Of a stretch of 64,000 bases of DNA, positions 41,777 through 58,536 are shown piece after piece. The stretch comes from Heterodontus francisci (lineage: Eukaryota): NCBI RefSeq assembly GCF_036365525.1, contig NC_090380.1, positions 87,243,658-87,307,657 on the forward strand. The letters are read 5' to 3'. Position 1 is the first letter of the stretch; each line of letters begins with the position of its first letter. The position numbers and the translations under genes were made by a program. The notes under the pieces were generated by a model, which was given only the letters and a program-made list of their open reading frames with translations, was not told where the DNA came from and ran no database searches.

Positions 41777-44700
41777 TTAGAATTAGAACATTACAGCGCA
41801 GTACAGGCCCTTCGGCCCTCGATGTTGCGCCGACCTGTGAAACCATCTGACCTACACTATTCCATTTTCATCCATATGTCTATCCAATGACCACTTAAAT
41901 GCCCTTAAAGTTGGCGAGTCTACTACTGCTGCAGGCAGGGCGTTCCACGCCCCTACTACTCTGCGTAAAGAAACTACCTCTGACATCTGTCCTATATCTT
42001 TCACCCCTCAACTTAAAGCTATGTCCCCTCGTGTTTGCCATCCTCATCCGAGGAAAAAGACTCTCACTATCCACCCTATCTAACCCTCTGATTATCTTGT
42101 ATGTCTCTATTAAGTCACCTCTCTTCCTCCTTCTCTCTAACGAAAACAACCCCAAGTCCCTCAGCCTTTCCTCGTAAGACCTTCCTTCCATACCAGGCAA
42201 CATCCTAGTAAATCTCCTCTGCACCCTTTCCAAAGCTTCCACATCCTTCCTATAATGCGGTGACCAGAACTGCACGCAATACTCAAGGTGCGGCCTCACC
42301 AGAGTTTTGTACAGCTGCATCATGACCTCGTGGCTCCGAAACTCGATCCCCCTACTAATAAAAGCTAACACACCATATGCCTTCTTAACAGCCCTATTTA
42401 CCTGGGTAGCAACTTTCAGGGATTTATGCACCTGGACACCAAGATCTCTCTGCTCATCTACACTACCAAGAATCTTCCCATTAGCCCAGTACTCTGCATT
42501 GCTGTTACTCCTTCCAAAGTGAATCACCTCACACTTCTCCGCATTAAACTCCATTTGCCATCTCTCAGCCCAGCTCTGCAGCCTATCTATGTCCCTCTGT
42601 ACCCTACAACATCCTTCGGCACTATCCACAACTCCACTGACCTTAGTGTCATCCGCAAATTTACTAACCCACCCTTCTACACCCTCTTCCAGGTCATTTA
42701 TAAAAATGACAAACAGCAGTGGCCCCAAAACAGATCCTTGCGGTACACCACTAGTAACTAAACTCCAGGATGAACATTTGCCATCAACCACCACCCTCTG
42801 TCTTCTTTCAGCTAGCCAATTTCTGATCCAAAGCTCTAAATCACCTTCAACCCCATACTTCCGTATTTTCTGCAATAGCCTACCGTGGGGAACCTTATCA
42901 AACGCCTTACTGAAATCCATATACACCACATCCACTGCTTTACCCTCATCCACCTGTTTGGTCACCTTCTCGAAAAACTCAATAAGGTTTGTGAGGCACG
43001 ACCTACCCGTCACAAAACCGTGCTGACTATCGCTAATGAACTTATTCTTTTCAAGATGATTATAAATCCTGTCTCTTATAACCTTTTCCAACATTTTACC
43101 CACAACCGAAGTAAGGCTCACAGGTCTATAATTACCAGGGCTGTCTCTACTCCCCTTCTTGAACAAGGGGACAACATTTGCTATCCTCCAGTCTTCCGGC
43201 ACTATTCCTGTCGACAATGACGACATAAAGATCAAGGACAAAGGCTCTCCCTTTAGATCCTTCCTGGCTAGCTTGTAACTCTCAAGCGCCCTAACTGAAC
43301 CTTCACGTCTTATCCTAACTTCTTCCTCTTGACAAGCGCTTCAACTTCTTTGGTAAACCACGGCTCCCTCGCTCGACAACTTCCTCCCTGCCTGACAGGT
43401 ACATACTTATCAAGGACACGCAGTAGCTGCTCCTTGAATAAGCTCCACATTTCGATTGTTCCCATCCCCTGCAGTTTCCTTCCCCATCCTACGCATCCTA
43501 AATCTTGCCTAATCGCATCATAATTTTCTTTCCCCCAGCTATAATTCTTGCCCTGCGGTATATACCTGTCCCTGCCCATCGCTAAGGTAAACCTAACCGA
43601 ATTGTGATCACTATCACCAAAGTGCTCACCTACATCTAAATCTAACACCTGGCCGGGTTCATTACCCAGTACCAAATCCAGTGTGGCATCGCCCCTGGTT
43701 GGCCTGTCTACATACTGTCAGAAAACCCTCCTGCACACACTGGACAAAAACTGACCCATCTAAAGTACTCGAACTATAGTATTTCCAGTCAATATTTGGA
43801 AAGTTAAAGTCCCCCATAACAACTACCCTGTTACTCTCGCCCCTGTCGAGAATCATCTTCGCTATCCTTTCCTCTACATCTCTGGAACTATTCGGAGGTC
43901 TATAAAAGACTCCCAACAGGGTGACCTCAGCTCTCCTGTTTCTAACCTCGGCCCATACTACCTCAGTAGACGAGTCCTCAAACGTCCTTTCTGTCGCTGT
44001 AATACTCTCCTTGATTAACAATGCCACACCACCCCCCCCTCTTTTACCATCTTCTCTGTTCTTACTGAAACATCTAAATCCCGGAACCCGCAACATCCAT
44101 TCCTGTCCCTGCTCTACCCATGTCTCCGAAATGGCCACTACATCGAGATCCCAGGTACCAACCCATGCTGCAAGCTCACCCACCTTATTCCGGATGCTCC
44201 TGGCGTTGAAGTAGACACACTTTAAACCAGGTTCTTGCTTGCCAGTGCCCTCTTGTGTCCTTGTAACCTTATCCCTGACCTCACTACTCTCAACATCCTG
44301 TACACTGGAACTACAATTTAGGTTCCCATTCCCCTGCTGAATTAGTTTAAACCCCCCCCCCCCCCCCCCCCGAAGAGCACTAGCAAATCTCACCCCCCCA
44401 GGATATTGGTACCCCTCTGGTTCAGGTGAAGACCATCCTGTTTGTAGAGGTCCCACCTACCCCAGAAAGAGCCCCAATTATCCAGGAAACCAAAACCCTC
44501 CCTCCTGCACCATCCCTGCAGCCACGTGTTCAACTCCTCTCTCTCCCTATTCCTCGCTTCGCTATCGCGTGGCACGGGCAACAACCCAGAGGTAACAACT
44601 CTCTTTGTTCTCGCTCTAAGCTTCCACCCTAGCTCCCTGAATTTCTGTCTTAAATCCCCATCTCTCTTCCTACCTATGTCGTTGGTGCCTATGTGGACCA

Positions 44701-45600
44701 CGACTTGGGGCTGCTCCCCCTCCCCCCTAAGGATCCCAGAAACACGATCCGAGACATCACGAACCCTGGCACCTGGGAGGCAACACACCTCGTTCCCACA
44801 GAACCTCCTATCTGTTCCCCTAACTATGGAGTCCCCAATGACTAATGCTCGGCTCCTCTTCCCCCTTCCCTTCTGAGCAACAGGGACAGACTCTGTGCCA
44901 GATACCTGTACCCCATTGCTTACCCCTGGTAAGTCGTCCCCCGCAACAGTATCCAAAACGGTATACCTGTTGGTGAGGGAAACTGCCACAGGGGATCCCT
45001 GCACTGCCTGCTGGTTCCCCCTCCTTCCCCTGACGGTAACCCATCTACCTACTTCTTTTACCTGAGGTGTGACTACCTCCCCATAACTCCTCTCAATAAC
45101 CCCCTCTGCCTCCCGAATGATCCGAAGTTCCTCCAGCTCCAGTTCCCTAACGCGGTTCTCGAGGAGCTGGAGTTGGGTGCACTTCCCGCAGATGCAGTCA
45201 GCAGGGACACTCTTGGCGACCCTTACCTCCCACATTCTGCAGGAGGAACATACAACTGCCTTAACTTCCATTCCCACTATTCTAAATTCCCAACAAATCT
45301 ACTGAAAAACCAAAAAAAAAAAGTCAAAACTTGTTAGGTTAGCAATCCAACGGACAGAACTTTTTAAATAAAAAGCTTACCTTATCAACACACCAGAGTC
45401 CTTTTTTTTGGTTAGAGGAGGAGGGTGGGTGGGAGACACTACATGTGTAGTGTCTCGGGTACAGCCACCACCCAAGTATATAGTTTTTACTTACCCAGCA
45501 GTCCCCTGGTCCTCCGAAAACAAAAGGGAATTAACTTTTAACTTACACTGAAATTGACTTCCCAGCTGCAAGTTCGCTCCGCACCTCCGCTACTGTCAAA
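41777..45600 (-). mobile_element. Near full-length young CR1 LINE: ORF1 (Zn finger, coiled coil, SGNH esterase) and ORF2 (APE-RT) with frameshifts and an internal deletion near 43250
   Basis: ORF1 44390-45277 (CSSC..CICGKC, GDS, VHIGTND, DGLHLN). APE at 43310-44456 (YFNARSI, ISETW, YRPP, GDFN, SDHN). RT at 41895-43241. (ttctaa)n tail. Confidence 0.95.
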
Positions 45601-45929: not shown

Positions 45930-48900
45930 TAATAGGTTTTGGAAAAAAACGTCAACAGTGATATCACAGGAAAGCTGCAAGGTGATTGGTTGGTGAGTAA
46001 CAGCTGTTGGGAAATAACTCGAAATAGCTCCAAGTAACTGAAGTAAAGAGAAAGGCCTACAGTTCTTTTTCATATAGAAGGTAGTTTTTTTTTTTAGGCA
46101 GTCTAGGTTCCTTGTGTAAATCTAATTTTTGGGCATTTTAAGCGAGTAAAAACAGTTTAAAATAAAACAGTGATGTCACAGGAAAACTATAAGTTCATTG
46201 GTAAGTAACTGCAAATTTGAATTACCAATTCTAAGTTGATTTCAGATTAGAGGTGAATAGGAGAAATATTTTACAGATTAAAAACTAAAGACCAGTCGGA
46301 AATTTAAAAAACAAATTAAAATCTAATTAAATAAAAGAGATGCAGGGCCAGGCAATGTGTTGCACCTGCATGATGTGGGAGCTGGAGGACCTCATTGTGG
46401 TTCCTAGTGACCACATCTGTAGCAAGTGTTAGCTGCTCGAGGAACTCCGGCTCGGAGTTGATGAGCTGGAGTCTGAGCTTCAGACACAGCGACCCATCGG
46501 GGAGGGGGAAAGTTACCTGGACGCTGCGTTTCAGGGGGCAGTCACACCCCTTAGATTAACTACCTTGAATTTGGCCAGTGGTCAGGGACAGGAGGGTGTG
46601 ACTGAGTGAGGCAGGTAGAGGGATCCAGGAGGTAGTGTTGCAGGAGCCTCAGCCCTTGTCCTTGTCCAACAGGTTCGAGATTCTTGCTCCCTTTGTGGAC
46701 CAGAGCAGGGACTGTAGGGCGGATGAGCAAACTGACCATAGCACCGTGGTACAGGGAGCCATTCAAATGGGGGGGAGAAAAGAGAAATGTAGTCGTAATC
46801 GGGGATAGTATAGTTAGGGGCATAAACACTGTTTTCTGTGGCCAGGATCGAGACTCGCGAAGGCTGTGTTGTCTACCTAGTACCAGGGTTCAGGATATCT
46901 CATCTGGACTGCAGAGGAACTTGGAGTGGGAAGGGAAAGATCCAGTTGTTGTCCACATAGGTACTAACAATATAGGTAGAACGAGGATAGCGATTCTGCT
47001 GAGGGAATATGAGCAGAACCAAAAAACCACGAGCTAATTGGCACAGGGTCAATAAGATTAAAGAGGTAAATGCGTGGCTCAAAGATTGGTCTGGGAGTAA
47101 TGGGTTCGAATTCATGGGACATTGGCACCAGTACTGGGGAAGGAGGGAGCTGTTCCGATGGGACGAGCTGCACCTTAATCATGCTGGGACCTGATTCCTG
47201 GCGAATCGCATTACTAGGGCTGTAGGTAGGGCTTTAAACTAAATAGTGGGTGGTTGGGGGGGGGGGGGGGGAAGGGGGAGGTGGGGGTGTTCAGTTGCAT
47301 GGAAAATTAGGAAGTCAGAGTTCAGGTTAGTGATGAGGCTGATTGTTAACAGAAAATAAAAGGTAGGGACAGAACGTGTGAGCGTCCTATTGCACCAAGG
47401 AATTGTACAAGAGTAGGGAAATTTGATAATAGAACAAACGTAAAGGCTTTGTATCTGAATGCACAAAGCATTCTGAGTAAAATTGAGTTAACAGCGCAAA
47501 TAGAGATGAATGGGTATGATTTAGTTGCGATTACGGAGATGTGGTTGCAGGGAAACCAGGTTTGGGAATTGAATATCCAAGGGTATTCAGTATTTCGGAA
47601 GGATAGGTAGGAAGGTAAAGGAGGTGGTATAGCTTTCTTAGTAAAGGAAGAGATCGGTGCTGTAGTGAGAAATGACATAGGCACTGGAGATCAAGATGTC
47701 GAATCAGTCTGGGTAGGAATAAGAAATAGCAAAGGAAAGAAGTCCCTGGTGGGAGTAAGCTACAGGTCCCCAAACAGTAGTTCTGCAGTGGGGCACAGTA
47801 TTATCCAGGAAATACTGGGGGCTTGTAAAAAAGGTACGGCAATAATCATGGGTGATTTTAATATGCATATAGACTGGATTAATCATATTGGCAAGGGTAG
47901 CCTCGGGGGAGAGTTTATTGAATGTATTAGCAATTGTTTTTTGGAGAAATATGTTGTGGAACCAACCAGGGAGCAGGCTATTCTAGATGTGGTATTGTAC
48001 AATGAGGTGGGATTAATTAATCTCATAGTTAAGGATCCTCGAGGGAAGAGTGATCATAGCATGCTAGAATTTCAAATTCAGTTTGAGGGCGAGAAACTGG
48101 AGTCCCACACGAGCATTCTGGAGTTAAACAAAGATAATTACATAGGCATGAGGCAGATTTGGCCCTAGTGGACTGGGCAGGAAGACTAAAAGGTAGGACA
48201 GTTGATGAGTAGTGGTAGATATTTAAGGAGATATTCAATTCTTCCCAACTAAAATATATTCCAGAGAGGAAGAAAGATTGTAAGAGGGGGAAAAACATCT
48301 ATGGCTAAGCAAGGAAGTTCTTCCTTCTTCTTCTTTGGCCTCCTTGTCTGGAGAGACAATGCGTAAGCGCCTGGAGGTGGTCAGTGGTTTGTGAAGCAGC
48401 GCCTGGAGTGGCTATAAAGGTCAATTCTAGAGTGACAGACTCTTCCACAGGTGCTGCAGATAAAATTGGTTGTCAGGGCTGTTACACAGTTGGCTCTCCC
48501 CTTGCGCTTCTGTCTTTTTTCCTGCCAACTGCTAAGTCTCTTCGATTTGCCACAATTTAGCCCAGCCTTCATGGCTGCCCGCCAGCTCTGGCGATCACTG
48601 GCAACTGACTCCCACGACTTGTGATCAATGTTACAGGACTTCATGTCGCATTTGCAGACATCTTTAAAGCAGGGACATGGACGGCCGGTGGGTCTCATAC
48701 TAGTGAGGAGCTCGCTGTACAATGTGTCCTTGGGGATCCTGCCATCTTCCATGCGGCTCACATGGCCAAGCCATCTCAAGCGCCCCTGGCTCAGTAGGGT
48801 GTATATGTTGGCCACCTCGAGGACTTCTGTGTTGGAGATATGGTCCTGCCACCTGATACCAAGGACTCTCTGGAGGCAGCGAAGATGGAATGAATTGAGA

Positions 48901-51697
48901 CGTCACTCTTGGCTGACATACGTTGTCCAGGCCTCGCTGCCGTAGAGCAAGGTACTGAGGACACCGGCTTGATAAGCTCGGACTTTTGTGTTCTGTGTCA
49001 CTGCGCCCTTTTCCCATACCCTCTTGGCCAGTCTGAACAGAGCAGTGGAAGCCTTTCCCATGTGCTTGTATATTTCTGCATCGAGAGAGAGGTTACTGGT
49101 GATAGTTGAGCCTAGGTAGGTGAACTCTTGAACCACTTCCAGAGTGTGGTCGCCGATATAGATGGATGGAGCATTTCTGATGTCCTGTCCCATGATCGTT
49201 TTCTTGATGCTGATGGTTAGGCCAAATTCGTAGCAGGCAGCTGCAATCCTGTCGATGAGTCTCTGCAGACGCTCTTCAGTGTAAGATGTTAATGCAGCAT
49301 CGTCCGCAAAGAGGAGTTCCCTGATGAGGACTTTCCGTCCTTTGGCCTTTGCTCTTGTATGCCTTTCATATTGTCATGGAATGAGGTGATGATACTTAGT
49401 AGCTTTGGTGGACATCCGATCTTTGCTAGTAGTCTGAAGAGACCACGTCTGCTGACGAGGTCAAAGGCTTTGGTGAGATCAATGAAAGCAACGTAGAGGG
49501 GCATCTGTTGTTCACGGCATTTCTCCTGTAGTTGGTGAAGGAAGAACAGCATGTCAGTGGTGGATCTCTCTGCTCGAAAGTAACACAGTGCCTCAGGGTA
49601 GACACGCTCAGCTAGCTTCTGGAGCCTGTTCAAAGCGACTTGAGCGAAGACTTTCCCCACTATGCTGAGCAGGGAAATTCCACGGTAGTTAAGGATAACG
49701 TAAAGACAAAAACTAAGGCATGCCATATTGCAAACGCCAGTGGCAGGCTGGAAGATTGGGAAACTTTTTTAAAGATCAACAAAGGGTTACTAAAAAAAGT
49801 AATAAAAAGAGAAGAGGTAAATTATGAAAGAAAACTAGCGCAAAATATAAAAACGGAAAGCAAAAGCTTCTGTAGTTATATAAAAGGGAAGAGAGTAGCT
49901 AAAGTGAATGTTGCTCCCTTGGAGGATGAGACTGGGGAGTTAATAGAGGGGAACACAGAAATGGCGGAGACACTAAATCAGTGTTTTGCCTCAGTTTTCA
50001 CAGTGGAAGACATTAGTACCATCCCAATAGTAACAGGTAATGCAGACGTTATAGAAAGGGAGGAACTTGGAACAATCATCATCACTAGAGGAAAAAGTGC
50101 TGATCAAACAATTGGGATTGAAGGCCGACAAGTCCCCAGGGCCTGATGGCCTACATCCTAGGGTCTCAAAGGAAGTGGCAGCGGAGATAGTGGATCCATT
50201 GGTTATAATATTCCAAAATTCCCTAGATGCTGGGAAGGTTGCAGTGGATTGGAAAAAAGCTAATATAATGCCCTTATTCAAAAAGGGAGGCAGAAAGTAG
50301 GAAACTGTAGACCAGTTAGTTTAACATCTGTAGTTGGGAAATTGTTAGAATCCATTATTAAGGAAGTAATAACAGGACATTTAGAAAGTCAAAATGCAAT
50401 CCATCAGAGTCAGCATGGTTTTATGAAGGGTAAATTGTGTTTGACTAATTTGCTAGAGCTCTTCGAAGATGTAACAAGTAAAGTAGATAATGGGGATCCT
50501 GTAGATATAGTATATCTGGTCTTCCAGAAGACATTTGATAAGGTGCCGCATAAAAGGTTAATACACAAAGTAAGGTCACATGGGGTTAAGGGCAATTTAT
50601 TAGCTTGGATAGAGGATTGGCTAACCAACAGAAAAGAGAGAGTTGGGATAAATGGGTCAATTTCTGGTTGGCAAGATGTAACTAATGGGGTGCCACAGGG
50701 TTCGGTCCTCAGGGGCCCAACTATTTACAGTCTATATTAATGACTTGGATGCAGGGATAGAAGGTACTATAGCCAAATTTGCAGATGACACTAAAATAGG
50801 TGGGATAGTAAGTTGCAGTAAAGAAATAAGAAATTTACAAATGGATATGGATACGTTAGGTGAATGGGCCAAAATTTGGCAGATGGAGTTCAACGTGGAT
50901 AAGTGAGGTTATCCATTTTGGTCGGAAGAATAGAAAGGCAATTATTATCTAAATGGAGAGAAACTTCAGAGTGCTTCGTTTCAGAGGGATCTGGGTGTCC
51001 TCGTGCTTGAATCGCAGTAAACCAGTATGCAGGTGCAGCAGGTAATAAGGAACGTAAATGGAATTTTGTCAATTATTGCTAAAGGAATAGAGTATAAAGG
51101 TAGGGAAGTGTTGCAACTTTACAAGGCATTGGTGAGACCGCACCTGGACTATCGCGTACGGTTTTGGTCCCCTTACCTGAGGAGGGATGTAGTTGCATTG
51201 GAGGCAGTTTAGAGGAGGTTCATTAGATTAATTCAAGAGATGAGGGGTTTGTCTTGTGAAGAGAGTTTGAGCAGTTTAGGCCTTTACTCTCTCTCGAGTT
51301 TATAAGAATGAGAGTAGATCTAATTGAGGTACATAAGATGATTAAGGGGACTGACAAAGTAGACGTAGAGAGGATGTTTCCTCTGGTGGGGCAATCTAGA
51401 ACGGGAGGTCATAGTTTTAGGATAAGGGGTAGCAGATTTAAAACAGCGATGAGGAGAAAGCACGTCTCTCAAAGGGTCATGAGCCTGTGGAATTCCCTAC
51501 CCCAGAGTGCAGTGGATGCCGGGACACAGTAAATTTAAGGAGGAGATAGACAGATTTTTAATTAGTGATGGGTTATGGAAAATGGGCAGGAAAGTGGAGT
51601 TGAGGCCGAGATGAGAACAGCCATGATCGTATTGAATGGCGGAGCAGCCTGGAGGGGCTGAACTGCCTACTCCTGCTCCTAGTTTTTATATTCTTAT
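45930..51697 (+). mobile_element. Full-length degraded CR1 LINE interrupted by an RTE insertion
   Basis: ORF1 remnants at 46340-47240 (Cys knuckle, VVIGDSIVRG, VHIGTNN, DELHLN). APE 47665-48168 and RT 50067-51532. 3' tail cctactcctgctcctagtttttatattcttatg. Confidence 0.92.
48320..49686 (-). mobile_element. RTE-clade (BovB-like) LINE, 5'-truncated and internally deleted
   Basis: NYRGISLLSIVGK, AFIDLTKAFDLVSR, FTYLGS, LLYGSEAW, RLRWLGHVSRM, C-terminal CSTCGRVCHSRIDLYSH finger and (GAA)n tail. Junction duplication agtt at 48316-48319 and 49687-49690. Central RT is missing at about 49355. Confidence 0.9.
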
Positions 51698-52794
51698 GTG
51701 TGTGAGAAGGAGCCAAGCTCAATCATTGCATTTGCACTCAGCTGCAAGGAATACAAGAACGTTGTAGAAGATCTTGGACGAGAATCTGTGATGAATGGGA
51801 GTGACGATGGAGTACAACAGCCAAATAATGCGGACAGACCAAAGACCAATAGCCTTGCAAGGCACTTGGAAAGCTGCAGCAGTCAAGGAAATCGCAGCAG
51901 TGATTCTGAACAAACATATGATGGTGATGGAGACAAACAGAAGAAACATCTTGGAAACCCACATGTGGAACTACAGTTTTCAGACGCCAATGCCAAGTTT
52001 TACTGTCGAATTTATTACGCTGAAGAATTCCACAAAATGAGGGAAGTGATCTTGGCAAACAATGAAGATGACTTCATCCGATCTCTATCTCACTGTGTGC
52101 CATGGCAAGCCCGAGGAGGCAAATCAGGAGCATCTTTTTATGCTACAGAAGATGACCGCTTTATTCTGATGCAGATGCCTCGTTTGGAAGTACAGTCATT
52201 CCTGGATTTTGCTCCTCATTATTTTAATTATATTACAACTGCCGTTCAGAAAAGACCGACAGCATTGGCAAAAATTCTGGGAGTATATCGAATAGGCTAC
52301 AAAAACTCTCAGAACAATACAGAGAAGAAACTTGATCTTTTGGTTATGGAGAATCTCTTTTATGGGAGAAAAATGGCGCAAGTTTTTGATTTGAAAGGTT
52401 CTTTAAGGAATCGAAATGTTCAAACTGAAACGGGAAAAGAGACATGTGATGTTGTATTACTGGATGGAAACCTATTGAAAATGATTCGCGATAACCCTCT
52501 TTACATTCAGTCACACTGCAAGGCTGTGCTGCGGGCATCCATTCATAGTGATGCATATTTTCTGTCAAGCCATCTCTTCATTGACTATTCCCTACTTGTG
52601 GGCCGAGATGACATTAAAAATGAATTGGTTGTTGGAATTATCGATTGATATCAGGACATTTACTTGGGATAAAAAACTTGAAATGGCTGTAAAGTCTACG
52701 GGAATCTTAGGTGGGCAAGGGAAAATGCCAACTGTGGTTCCCCCAGAACTTTTATAGAACGAGGTTTTGTGAAGCAATGGACAAGTACTTCCTG
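51698..52794 (+). pseudogene. PIKFYVE: Processed PIKFYVE fragment covering the C-terminal PIPK kinase domain
   Basis: Intronless CEKEPSSIIAFALS...ARGGKSGA...FDLKGSLRNR...IDYSLLVG...GIID/IRTFTWDKKLE...YRTRFCEAMDKYFL. Frameshifts at about 52647 and 52752. The catalytic Lys codon appears as ATG at 52169-52171. Confidence 0.92.
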
Positions 52795-52864
52795 AAGTGT
52801 CAAGAAAAATGTAGCAATGCCCAAGAGCTGAGCAGAAAACTCTTCCTGCCGTACTGGCACATAT

Positions 52865-53700
52865 CATGCTAACGGCGCAATGTTGGCGAATTCCTGCTGG
52901 TACTGACGCCCAAGGCTGTCGCCCACCTCCCGGAAGACACGGATGAGCTTTCCTGGCGTCGATGGTGGGAACTGATGAAATATTTTATTACCTGCACCCC
53001 CTTTCTCTCTCCCCCGCACCCTCTTCACCCACCCCCTCGCAACCCCTTCCCAACCCCTTCCCACCTTCCCCTGCAGCCCCCTTCCCACCGGCATCCACCT
53101 ATCCCTGAGCAGGGGCCCTAACAACCCCACTGCCTTGTGGGCGTCTCGGGAGAGTCCAAGGCTAAGGGAGTAAACCCTAACAGAAAATCCGGAGCGGAAC
53201 CCCGTAGGCAGTCATGTGTCACCTTTGGCATGTTTCCGGCAGTTCCTGCAGCCATACCGGTGCCAAACGTCGTGCTCTGCACTCCTTTGGACCCCACCAG
53301 AAAGGCCAAGAGGGGGGTTTTGACGCTTGGGCAACTCACAACCTCCATACATTCGCCCAGGCATGCGCCATTGAGAGGTCACTCCGTAGTCGCCTCACAG
53401 CGACCGAAACAACATGGAAGGCAGCAGTTACGGGTTATAGGTCCAGCTGAATTGGCTTAGAGATTGGGCGCCACGGGTTGTCTTGGTCGGTGGGAGAGGT
53501 CATCGCACCTCACTGGAAGCGCAAGGGGAGAGCCAACTGTGTAACAGCCCCGACAACCAGTTTTTTCTGCAGCACCTGTGGAAGAGTTTGTCACTCTAGT
53601 GTTGGCCTTTATAGCCACTTCAGGCGCTGCTCCACAAACCACTGACCACCTCCAGGCGCTTACCCATTGTCTCCCGAGACAAGGAGGCCAAAGAAGAAGA
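52865..53700 (+). mobile_element. Short non-autonomous RTE derivative (RTE-like 5' region joined to the RTE 3' end with a GAA tail)
   Basis: 53517-53700 closely matches the reverse complement of 48320-48510. The upstream part (taagggagtaaaccctaacagaaaatcc) resembles RTE 5' UTRs as recalled. The left boundary is uncertain. Confidence 0.7.
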
Positions 53701-55437
53701 TGTTCTTTTCAAACTGAATTTTTAAATATTTGTTAGACTGAACATTAATGAAACTAATTATTGTTTCTGTACTGCTTTTAAAGTCATTTTCAGTTATAAG
53801 TGGTGGACTAGACACTGGTTATAATGCTTTTTTTTGTGATAAACCCATTTTCAGTTGCATTGGTAAAACTGTACCAGGCTACCATTCTTAAATATATCAA
53901 ATTTTTTTATTGCAAAAAAAAATATTCTAAAACCCTGCCCGCTTCGGATTCATGGCAGATTTTACATTCAGCAAGATGAGTTTGAGCAGAAACCTGAGCC
54001 ACAAATCACTTCTGAAAATTAGCACAATTTTGAGTGCATTTTCACTCTGCCAGTTGCGCCCAAAGCGGAAACTCTACTCCATTATTTTAGTTGCCTCCGT
54101 TTTGATTTTCCTACTGTTTTGTACCTCAGTAGGTGAATATGCAGACACATAATAGCTATATTTCCCCTGCTCCTCCCACCTGCAGTAATGCTCTGTATTG
54201 ATATGACTGCTCTAATTTGCTGTAGCAGGACATTTTAGTTAGATTTGCCCTTGCATGTTTAGCTATTTTTGTGTGGCAAAATGTTCAAAATGAGGGAAAC
54301 AGGGCATCTGAGACCTGAGTGAACAGGGCAAACTACTCTATATTTCCTTAGCTAATCAGATTAAGGAATTGTGAAATTAACAGGACCGGAACTAAGAAGG
54401 AAGTGCAGATTAGAGTGGGTGAGTTCAAGTTTATATCTGGTACAGAGAGAGAAATGAGCAAGCGTACAAAATGTTGGATTGAGAGAGATAAAGACAAAAG
54501 AAAAGCTTAAAAAAAACACTTTTAAAATCTGAAGGAATGAGACTCCTCATTCATAATTGTTCATTTTCAGTGGCAGCAAAGTAGATTTGCAGTAGTCAAC
54601 ATATCACTTTGGTAGTTAAGTCTTGTCCATTTCTGTCTAAGTACTTTCTATAGGGCTTTTAGTTTGTATCTATCATACAAATACAGCAACTTCATGTTGA
54701 ATGCATTTCAATGGTGCACGAGGCACTGAGATGCTGTTTTTGCGAAGCAAATGGCACATCTGTCCCTTGCCTGAAGTTGCTGTACCATTCGCACATAAAT
54801 AACATTGAGTGCCATTGACTTCACCGTTACTTTCACAGCAAATTCTAGTCCATTGTGTGTCCCATATTACTTGCCCAATTGGTTGGTTAAGACTGATAAA
54901 ACTTTCCTTTGTACAAGGCTGATGGATGAGAGATTTTAAGGCTGGGGCCTTCATATGCATCAAAGTAACCTACTGATTGTTTTGTTGCATGCAGTATTTG
55001 GGGTTATGTTTGTAAATCTGCAAATGATGGTGCTTTCGAAGAGTTGAGAAGAACATGCAAGAGAAGGGTTTTTATTTTGTTGAATATTTCATGTTTTTAC
55101 CAGGCATTAAGTTTTTAAAAATGTGCCTTGGAAGCATGTTGACTTTCAACACTCCATGCTATATGGTGGGAAGTAATGGAGGTTTGAGTTCTGCTCTGCT
55201 CACTTCTCAGCCATATTCAATGGAGAACTGCTGAGTGAGAGCTGCAGTGTCTCCCAGGAGCAAAAGTTAGCAGAGAGAACCTACCCACCAGTTAGTTTCT
55301 AATGCACTATGACAGCAGTCTAGAGTGGTACTGGTGGTCTGAGAGCGTACAGTTTCCACAAGGACAGAAGACTTGTAGTGCACCTGGGTCTGCCAAAGGG
55401 GAATATTCATTGAGGTGCATAGATTATGGATGATCTG

Positions 55438-55770
55438 TTTTTTATTTTAGAGATACAGCACTGAAACAGGCCCTTCGGCCCACCGAGTCTGTGCCGACCA
55501 TCAACCACCCATTTTATACTAATCCTACATTAATCCCATTACCCTCTCACATCCCCACCTTCCCTCAATTCCCCTACCACCTACATATACTAGGGGCAAT
55601 TTATAATGGCCAATTTACCTATCAACCTGCAAGTCTTTGGCTGTGGGAGGAAACCGGAGCACCCGGCGAAAACCCCCGCGGAGAACTTGCAAACTCCGCA
55701 CAGGCAGTACCCTGAATCGAACCCGGGTCGCTGGAGATGTGAGGCTGCGGTGCTAACCACTGCGCCACTG
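55438..55770 (-). mobile_element. HE1-like V-SINE
   Basis: Reverse complement of the 30754-31100 family. Confidence 0.9.
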
Positions 55771-56319
55771 TGGGACCAAGGAGAATTTTATGCAAAATGT
55801 TCTCCGGTTAAATGGATGGGGTAGTGGCCTTGAGTACGTTAATTGCACGTGACTTGTTGGGTTGACCGGACTTACGCACTTACTAGTATTAACTTGTTGA
55901 GTATAGCTTGTTACTGTTGGTATCCTATAGATAAGAGAGCTGTTTTACACTTCTGAAAACTCGTCTTTGTGCTAAAGCTCTGTACGGTGTATAATGTGCA
56001 TCTGATAAATGTTTTCATTTTTTTAAAGCAATAAACAACAACTTGCATCTATACAGTGGCTTTAATGTACAAAAATCTCCCAAGGTGCTTCACAAAGGCA
56101 TAAACAGTCATAAATGGAGAACATGTATTGAGCCATGCAGTTTCAAGGGCATGTAAAATCCAAATTGAGTACTCATCCATTGCAGATCAAGTTCTATTTT
56201 TATGTGCTAATACTCCAGGGGCATTTATTAATTGTGGTGTTGATGTCTAAATTGAGTCCTCCAGGAGCTGATGCCGTAAATCTATCAAACCTGTCCCAGT
56301 GTCGACAACCTTTAGTTAG

Positions 56320-57900: not shown

Positions 57901-58230
57901 TAAGTGTTTTCATAATAACTAAAGTAGAATAAGCCCAATGTACTTGTGATCCAAATTAAGCGCTCCCAGGTGTTAACATTGCTATACAGAAGTAGCAGAA
58001 CTTTCATAAGTCCAGAGCATATTTGAAATGCAGCAAATGGCTCAACACAAAGTTTTATTTGATGGAATGCTGTCATGATTACAAAGATGGTGTTATAATA
58101 TTTACAAAATTGGCTGCATGGTTGATACTGAGGAGGAAAGGTGTAAACTGCAGGAAAGTATCAACGAGCTGGTCAGATGCGCTAAAGTGCCAAATGGTAT
58201 TCGATCTGGAGAAGTGTGTGGTGGTAATGC

Positions 58231-58536
58231 ATTTATTTATTTATTTAGAGATACAGCACTGAAACAGACCCTTCGGCCCACCAAGTCTGTGCCGCCCAAC
58301 AACCACCCATTTCTACACCAATCCCATATTCCCTACCATCTACCTACACTAGGGCAATTTATAACGGCCAATTTACCTATCACCTGCAAGTCTTTTGGCT
58401 GTGGGAGGAAATCGGAGCACCTGGCGAAAACCCACGAAGACACAGGGAGAACTTGCAAACTCCGCACAGGCAGTACCCAGAATCGAACCTGGGTCCCTGG
58501 AGCTGTGAGGCTGCGGTACTAACCACTGTGCCACTG
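58231..58536 (-). mobile_element. HE1-like V-SINE nested among CR1 fragments
   Basis: Same family as 55438-55770. Neighbouring CR1 pieces at about 58080-58230 and 59060-59405. Confidence 0.85.

Follow-up and report, generated by a model that had tools for sequence, protein, structure and literature searches.

Retrocopies of cellular mRNAs are usually credited to L1, which recognises poly(A), whereas CR1, L2 and RTE retrotransposons are believed to depend on a 3' end of their own (PMC3747384, PMC4476161). The closest described systems include the U6-RTE, U6-RTESINE1 and U6-L2 chimeras of lizard, opossum and platypus, in which a cellular RNA lies 5' of a non-L1 long interspersed nuclear element (LINE) or its short counterpart (SINE), in the same sense; they are attributed to template switching, which is thereby reported for RTE (Doucet et al. 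2015, PMC4476161). A related unit is found in a 64,000-nucleotide (nt) stretch of the Heterodontus francisci genome (contig NC_090380.1, positions 87,243,658 to 87,307,657, forward strand; hereafter the window). Here a fragment of spliced PIKFYVE mRNA, a segment designated X and the remains of an RTE-clade element follow one another in the same sense, with the LINE part at the 3' end, inside the tail of an older CR1-type LINE. The locus is a real and dead mRNA-RTE chimera whose anatomy, duplication and decay can be read directly, and it is probably the product of a single event.

The window unit resembles the U6-L2 chimeras, with duplications of 1-9 base pairs (bp), in its short duplication. 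Unlike the U6 chimeras in general, it carries 1.1 kb of spliced coding mRNA entered internally, occurs in a cartilaginous fish and includes a bipartite RTE with a 5' leader (PMC4476161). Human mRNA/LINE-1 chimeras also hold a spliced mRNA piece 5' of a LINE within one duplication, and the same candidate mechanisms have been put forward for them (Law and Burns, bioRxiv 10.1101/2025.02.02.635956); however, they involve L1, long duplications and poly(A), and their sense cases often carry first exons, whereas the window unit involves an RTE and 3' coding exons. Bipartite non-autonomous RTEs and SINEs with acquired heads likewise join a 5' leader to a 3' end with the middle deleted, and their heads have been proposed to derive from template switches (Kojima 2018, PMC5786205; Kojima 2020, PMC7245038). 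Those heads are small RNAs or GC-rich pieces of unknown origin and the products are amplified, whereas the PIKFYVE piece is found at near single-copy depth in contigs. The WEIRD-MGL chimeras of Magnaporthe are likewise two- or three-part retrocopies from template jumps of a non-mammalian LINE, but they involve a fungal LINE, a non-coding partner RNA, many copies and, in the tripartite case, a 14-bp repeat (Gogvadze et al. 2007, PMC2104539).

Fusions of mRNAs with mobile elements are known for other elements, and an mRNA-RTE fusion is a less familiar form of them; the literature searched, which covered few subscription papers and no supplements, yielded no coding-mRNA/RTE chimera and no mechanism for shark retrocopies. 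The first-pass annotation of the window, made from its letters alone, spoke of a non-L1 route to retrocopies in a CR1/L2-dominated genome. The CR1 half of this description has backing, since CR1-group elements account for 22-34% of elasmobranch genomes, whereas L2 is reportedly absent from galeomorph sharks (PMC13343379); the phrase 'non-L1 route' describes the present insertion, not the genome.

A PIKFYVE fragment in a CR1 tail

The translation of 51698-52794 runs from VCEKEP to KYFL of PIKFYVE and is 78% identical to a mammalian isoform across the whole fragment. It contains a PIP5K domain (Pfam search, E=1.2e-33) and matches the human PIKFYVE chain 7k2v (E=1.4e-124). For comparison, public contigs were aligned to window positions 51400-54600 (from 4 of the 21 runs listed for this region; joints and differences are counted among the matches listed). 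Organism B provides a 2650-nt RNA-type contig that matches 51698-52797, differing by 28 substitutions and by 23 gap letters (gaps of 18, 3, 1 and 1 nt), and that extends a further 414 nt upstream and 1153 nt downstream of the match. Four parent pieces from organism A show 25 differences in 1047 nt, and the match of one of them, a 3393-nt contig, likewise begins at 51698. At the other end, the alignment can be extended from 52795 to 52797 with one mismatch. Because the parent contigs are colinear with the copy and run on beyond both of its ends, the PIKFYVE piece is, judged from these alignments, cut from the interior of a spliced mRNA.

As in a processed pseudogene, introns are absent and the copy is colinear with mRNA (organism B contig; exon borders inferred from gene-model variants of homologues). 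The reading frame is disabled by two +1 frameshifts, near 52647 and 52750, relative to both sets of parent contigs; since both sets are without the two extra bases, the frameshifts belong to the retrocopy. The copy also carries a 3-nt deletion near 52246, and a 55-residue alternative exon of mammalian isoforms is absent both from it and from the organism B contig. The copy has neither promoter nor start and has decayed as a pseudogene, as the frameshifts show; its value lies in the mechanistic record that it preserves and in its possible use as a phylogenetic marker. No RNA data set was listed as containing the stretch, a result without bearing on expression. The largest gap in the organism B alignment corresponds to 18 nt at 51876-51893 that are missing from the parent contig and adjoin a 6-nt direct repeat.

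The copy ends after KYFL, a motif followed by Met in 113 of 120 homologues and not present in the other 7. The last 13 codons, the 3' untranslated region (UTR) and the poly(A) are missing, and there is no A-run of at least 6 in 52790-53913. The usual marks of an L1-type pseudogene, a 3' poly(A) and a duplication of 7-18 bp, are not found at the locus. These results bear out two statements of the first-pass annotation, namely that an intronless PIKFYVE fragment begins right after the CR1 tail and that it stops before its last codons without poly(A).

The longest duplication flanking the whole unit is ATGT (51696-51699 and 53700-53703). The GT of the left copy also forms the first two bases of the mRNA match, a microhomology that leaves 2 to 4 bp of target-derived duplication; the 3-bp ATG proposed earlier was correct in kind but not in length. 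No duplication of at least 7 bp is present at the ends of the unit. Contigs of CR1 ends run to 51699 and then leave the window sequence (282 in run X1, 17 in X5 and 22 in X7), and the consensus of the departing contigs in X1 starts with TCTTATG, at an overall agreement of 0.35. Because CR1-end contigs continue in this way, the bases after 53700 are supported as the next unit of the CR1 tail, as had been proposed; of 128,020 window positions, 6 carry the 8-mer seen at 53700-53707. The duplication starts with A and is preceded by a T-run at -13 to -9, and the targets of animal RTEs are described as having an initial A and a T-run about 10 nt before it (PMC6007223). The T-run is also simply part of the CR1 tail.

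Table 1. Parts of the chimeric unit, its host element and the second RTE insertion (window positions)
Feature	Positions	Strand	Basis
Host CR1-type LINE, degenerate	46636..51695	+	Open reading frames; Pfam PF14529/PF03372/PF00078; 67% to another CR1 in the window
T-run, 9-13 nt 5' of the duplication, also within the CR1 tail	51683..51687	+	Sequence; signature of PMC6007223
Left ATGT copy of the duplication	51696..51699	+	CR1-tail contigs reach 51699; match to parent contigs begins at 51698
Spliced PIKFYVE coding fragment, VCEKEP to KYFL	51698..52795	+	Domain, structure-chain, protein and contig matches
Segment X, CpG-rich, repetitive at least from about 52875	52796..53001	+	Contig depth; organism B contig joint 53001 to 53083
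C-rich tract, 11-bp tandem units	53002..53082	+	Sequence; contig comparison
RTE 5' leader and start of reading frame	53083..53517	+	Matches to L070 and P0161
RTE 3' end with the final 42 codons, a stop at 53643-53645, a short 3' UTR and a GAA tail	53516..53699	+	Similarity to window RTE copy; loose ends of contigs
Right ATGT copy (53700-53703) and next CR1 tail unit	53700..53707	+	Contigs; 8-mer count
5'-truncated RTE copy of the same family nested in the same CR1, with 4-bp duplication (internal control)	48316..49690	-	Duplication 48316-48319 / 49687-49690

The RTE part and segment X

The first-pass annotation had the PIKFYVE fragment running straight into a short RTE-derived element ending in (GAA)n. 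The RTE 3' end is confirmed, 173 of 185 positions of 53516-53700 being identical to the RTE copy at 48326-48510, although its tail comprises only about two GAA units. Direct adjacency is not: some 290 bp (52796-53082; segment X and the C-rich tract), overlooked in the first reading, separate the PIKFYVE piece from recognisable RTE sequence.

Relatives of this RTE family have a single frame of about 1040 amino acids with a PF03372/PF14529 endonuclease and a PF00078 reverse transcriptase; one of them is named after F52C9.6, which we take to be RTE-1. An apurinic/apyrimidinic endonuclease and a reverse transcriptase in one frame, a short 3' UTR and a microsatellite tail place the family in the RTE clade, by domains and relatives. 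The closest relative of the window RTE protein is from Heterodontus francisci (83%), and the next best stands at 59%. Upstream of the 3' end, 53241-53531 matches the N-terminus of a shrimp RTE frame, P0161 (43% at the amino acid level, E=1.6e-18), and 53123-53515 resembles the 5' end of a near full-length RTE at metagenome locus L070 (72% over 406 nt). This closeness of the shark RTE to L070-type elements may bear on horizontal transfer. The L070 element itself (L070:1-4499), on a metagenome contig, is 55% identical to P0161 in amino acids.

Contigs of the autonomous element depart before 53516 and behind 53517, leaving a 2-nt overlap at 53516-53517. Because they leave on both sides of this point, the RTE part is interpreted as internally deleted; with its 5' and 3' ends joined and the middle gone, it is by this comparison what Kojima 2018 (PMC5786205) describes as a bipartite RTE. 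The 5' part has a high depth in run X1, and no contig among those listed clearly crosses 53516.

The 5' leader contains a conserved structured motif at about 53128-53190. An 18-nt stretch of it at 53160 has 84 exact matches in metagenome contigs (loci L001-L084), 19 of which also match P0161, and 0 in viral contigs. Upstream of this stretch, a 3-bp stem that encloses a conserved loop can form in 46 of 56 distinct loci and does so through several types of base pair, a count biased by choosing the best stem for each locus. The motif has no Rfam match at E up to 10, and its fold is not unusually stable (z=0.47). HDV-like (hepatitis delta virus-like) ribozymes have been reported at the 5' ends of RTEs (PMC5786205, PMC6765202), and the motif, which recalls them, is a candidate ribozyme and a lead only.

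Segment X is repetitive but much rarer than the RTE core. The summed depth in run X1, which is not a copy number and is used in this sense only, is 746 at 52791-52897, 13,876 at 52898-53004, about 657,000 for the RTE core and 5-7 for unique contigs. An organism B contig matches 52875-53001 and then 53083 onward, the C-rich tract at 53002-53082 differing from the sequence that joins the same two sides in that contig. Because X is repetitive yet rarer than the core, and because this contig links it to the RTE 5' part, X, at least from about 52875, would most simply be an upstream extension carried by a minority of the family members. It may be an acquired head like those of RTE-type SINEs (Kojima 2018, PMC5786205; Kojima 2020, PMC7245038).

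Searches for the source of X gave little. It is matched by none of the 84 metagenome loci, RNA and tRNA searches gave no match to a known RNA or a tRNA head, and protein searches with its forward frame were blank. In one register, X is almost open on both strands. Its minus strand bears a faint similarity to the BAK/BCL-2 BH3 region (8 of 8 PDB matches, E 0.35-1.5), and one further protein search returned a single repetitive, unrelated protein. An origin of X as an antisense BAK/BCL-2-like host mRNA is unsupported, the matches being non-significant, the other protein searches unsupportive and X repetitive.

Formation of the chimera

The account favoured here, with moderate confidence, is one insertion primed on RTE RNA, during which the enzyme changed templates and entered PIKFYVE mRNA internally. 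An RTE endonuclease would have nicked the tail of the older CR1 in the target context described above. Synthesis would then have started at the GAA end of an RTE RNA that was non-autonomous and internally deleted, and have proceeded through its 5' leader and extension X, the order of parts seen in the copy. With about one base of homology, the enzyme would have switched to an internal point of spliced PIKFYVE mRNA, 13 codons before the stop, and have copied 1.1 kb, a switch that may account for the fusion present at the locus. The end of the cDNA would finally have been joined to the target through the 2-nt microhomology, giving the observed duplication of up to 4 bp.

The preference for a single RTE-primed insertion rests on the one short duplication that flanks the whole unit, the RTE-like target, the absence of a duplication at the boundary between the C-rich tract and the RTE core (no repeat of at least 3 bp at 52990-53010 or 53070-53125), and the similarity of a control copy in the same window. 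The parent contigs also pass both ends of the PIKFYVE piece without X or RTE. Decay is similar in the two parts: the PIKFYVE piece differs from the organism A parent at 25 of 1047 nt and the two RTE 3' ends differ from each other at 12 of 185, or about 3% each if these are equally old.

Several points weigh against this reading. Most RTE duplications are reported to measure 7-15 bp (PMC6007223, citing Ichiyanagi and Okada); those at both window RTE insertions are 4 bp, and a 4-mer is weak evidence alone. The objection is softened by the internal control (48320-49686), an RTE copy whose own 4-bp duplication overlaps its 5' end, with the same Val codon of the CR1 on both sides. The targets of the two insertions are identical at 11 of 15 positions, a level reached at 31 of 128,020 window positions, in a 15-nt frame picked post hoc. 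A switch onto the interior of an mRNA without poly(A) is unlike most described mRNA chimeras. No contig among those listed bridges any of the three junctions, and among the joints listed there is no empty-site joint, organism C having next to no cover of the right flank. Finally, a third ATGT inside segment X (52809-52812) could bound the RTE part alone, and the right flank opens with the same three bases as the Met codon that comes next in the parent, so that internal priming on the mRNA also fits.

The single insertion may instead have used a chimeric RNA that existed beforehand, formed by read-through from PIKFYVE into an element in or behind the last exon (5' transduction), by splicing, in cis or in trans, that joined X to a cryptic donor right behind the Met codon, or by RNA ligation. 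RTEs are described as promoterless and freed from host co-transcripts by ribozymes (PMC6765202), splicing and ligation routes have been proposed for mRNA-L1 chimeras (bioRxiv 2025.02.02.635956), and the copy retains about 290 nt upstream of the start of most family contigs. The described spliced L1 chimeras, however, carry first exons, and a source element in the last coding exon would presumably truncate the kinase. In favour of a donor, 52797 is a possible end of the parent alignment, and the codon that follows there is one for Val, which necessarily begins with GT. The bases after this GT encode Val-Pro, which we take, from the codons only, to be a poor donor consensus. Simple 5' transduction from the gene as it now stands, an alternative offered in the first-pass annotation, is disfavoured, since parent contigs from two organisms cross the junction and contain no X there. 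A chimeric RNA formed in advance is unlikely overall. The annotation's first-named account, one insertion primed on RTE RNA with a switch onto host mRNA, is retained as far as the single RTE-primed insertion goes, but a template switch and a pre-formed chimeric RNA are inseparable from one copy.

Two insertions at one site are also unlikely, although the third ATGT and the match of the Met codon to the right flank keep such a history alive. One version has the target used twice, by an RTE reaching from 52813 with its own ATGT and by the PIKFYVE piece with a 13-nt filler at the same nick; in the other, PIKFYVE was primed internally on the Met codon and the RTE arrived later at the junction. The upstream T-run and the nick context would outlast a first insertion. 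The earlier annotation had taken a separate duplication around the RTE element as grounds for rejecting a single event; the C-rich/RTE-core boundary offers none, yet the ATGT within X is a possible one. ATGT, however, occurs at 0.49% of window positions, and one within the 31 nt examined is an event of about 15% by chance. The filler at 52796-52808 would be left unexplained, an independent landing within 1 nt of the junction is unlikely a priori, and an enzyme that copies mRNA without poly(A) would still be required.

An ordinary poly(A)-primed retrocopy (L1/Tx1-type) that later received an RTE and lost its 3' part would follow the usual route of retrocopying (PMC3747384), but it is very improbable: the last codons, 3' UTR and poly(A) are all gone, the ends of the unit show no duplication of at least 7 bp, and the CR1 tail resumes exactly at 53700, where the deletion would have had to stop at an old boundary. 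An assembly artefact joining a retrocopy to a repeat is hardly credible, for although no junction-bridging contig is among those listed, DNA contigs of similar depth agree fully, with no difference, with both the retrocopy (52320-52643) and the right flank, and an artefact would not create a duplication and a resumed CR1 tail.

If a single RTE-primed insertion with a template switch formed the unit, the placement of a host coding fragment ahead of an RTE 3' end would be a way round the requirement of such elements for their own 3' end. A simple screen can be offered, for retrocopies in shark and ray genomes whose 3' end is an RTE tail and not poly(A). A broader idea, doubtful at present, is that RTEs of cartilaginous fishes routinely capture mRNA interiors and are a main source of retrocopies there; X would then be an older, amplified capture heading an RTE subfamily, so that two rounds of capture would be present at this locus.

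Age and surrounding elements

The window departs from both RNA sets at 17 listed sites, 9 of them synonymous and 8 nonsynonymous (201 vs 747 sites available), and about 4 synonymous of 17 would be expected under neutral decay alone. Because of this excess, some of the changes probably arose in the parent after copying and before the split of organisms A and B, and the insertion itself would probably predate that split. In organism C, a 160-nt DNA contig covers 51707-51866 without gaps, across exon borders suggested by homologue gene models, and lacks the parental letter at 51775 and 51855 but has it at 51821. A DNA contig of the same organism matches 52308-52473, also without gaps. These matches hint at an orthologous PIKFYVE retrocopy in organism C.

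The window is rich in decayed LINEs. The host element comprises an esterase-like upstream frame, pieces of endonuclease and reverse transcriptase and a 3' tail, and is interrupted by the RTE copy at 48320-49686; its start is given as 46636, where the first frame that can be recognised begins. Its features are those that we take to mark a CR1. Two LINE 5' regions, at 43662-45298 (minus strand) and 46636-48168 (plus strand), lie back to back, each with an esterase-like upstream frame and the start of an endonuclease, and both are presumably CR1-like. Two related SINE-like copies, in which ARAGORN calls no tRNA, lie at about 55440-55775 and 58100-58520, with a tRNA-like end on the minus strand as judged by eye and from the frames.

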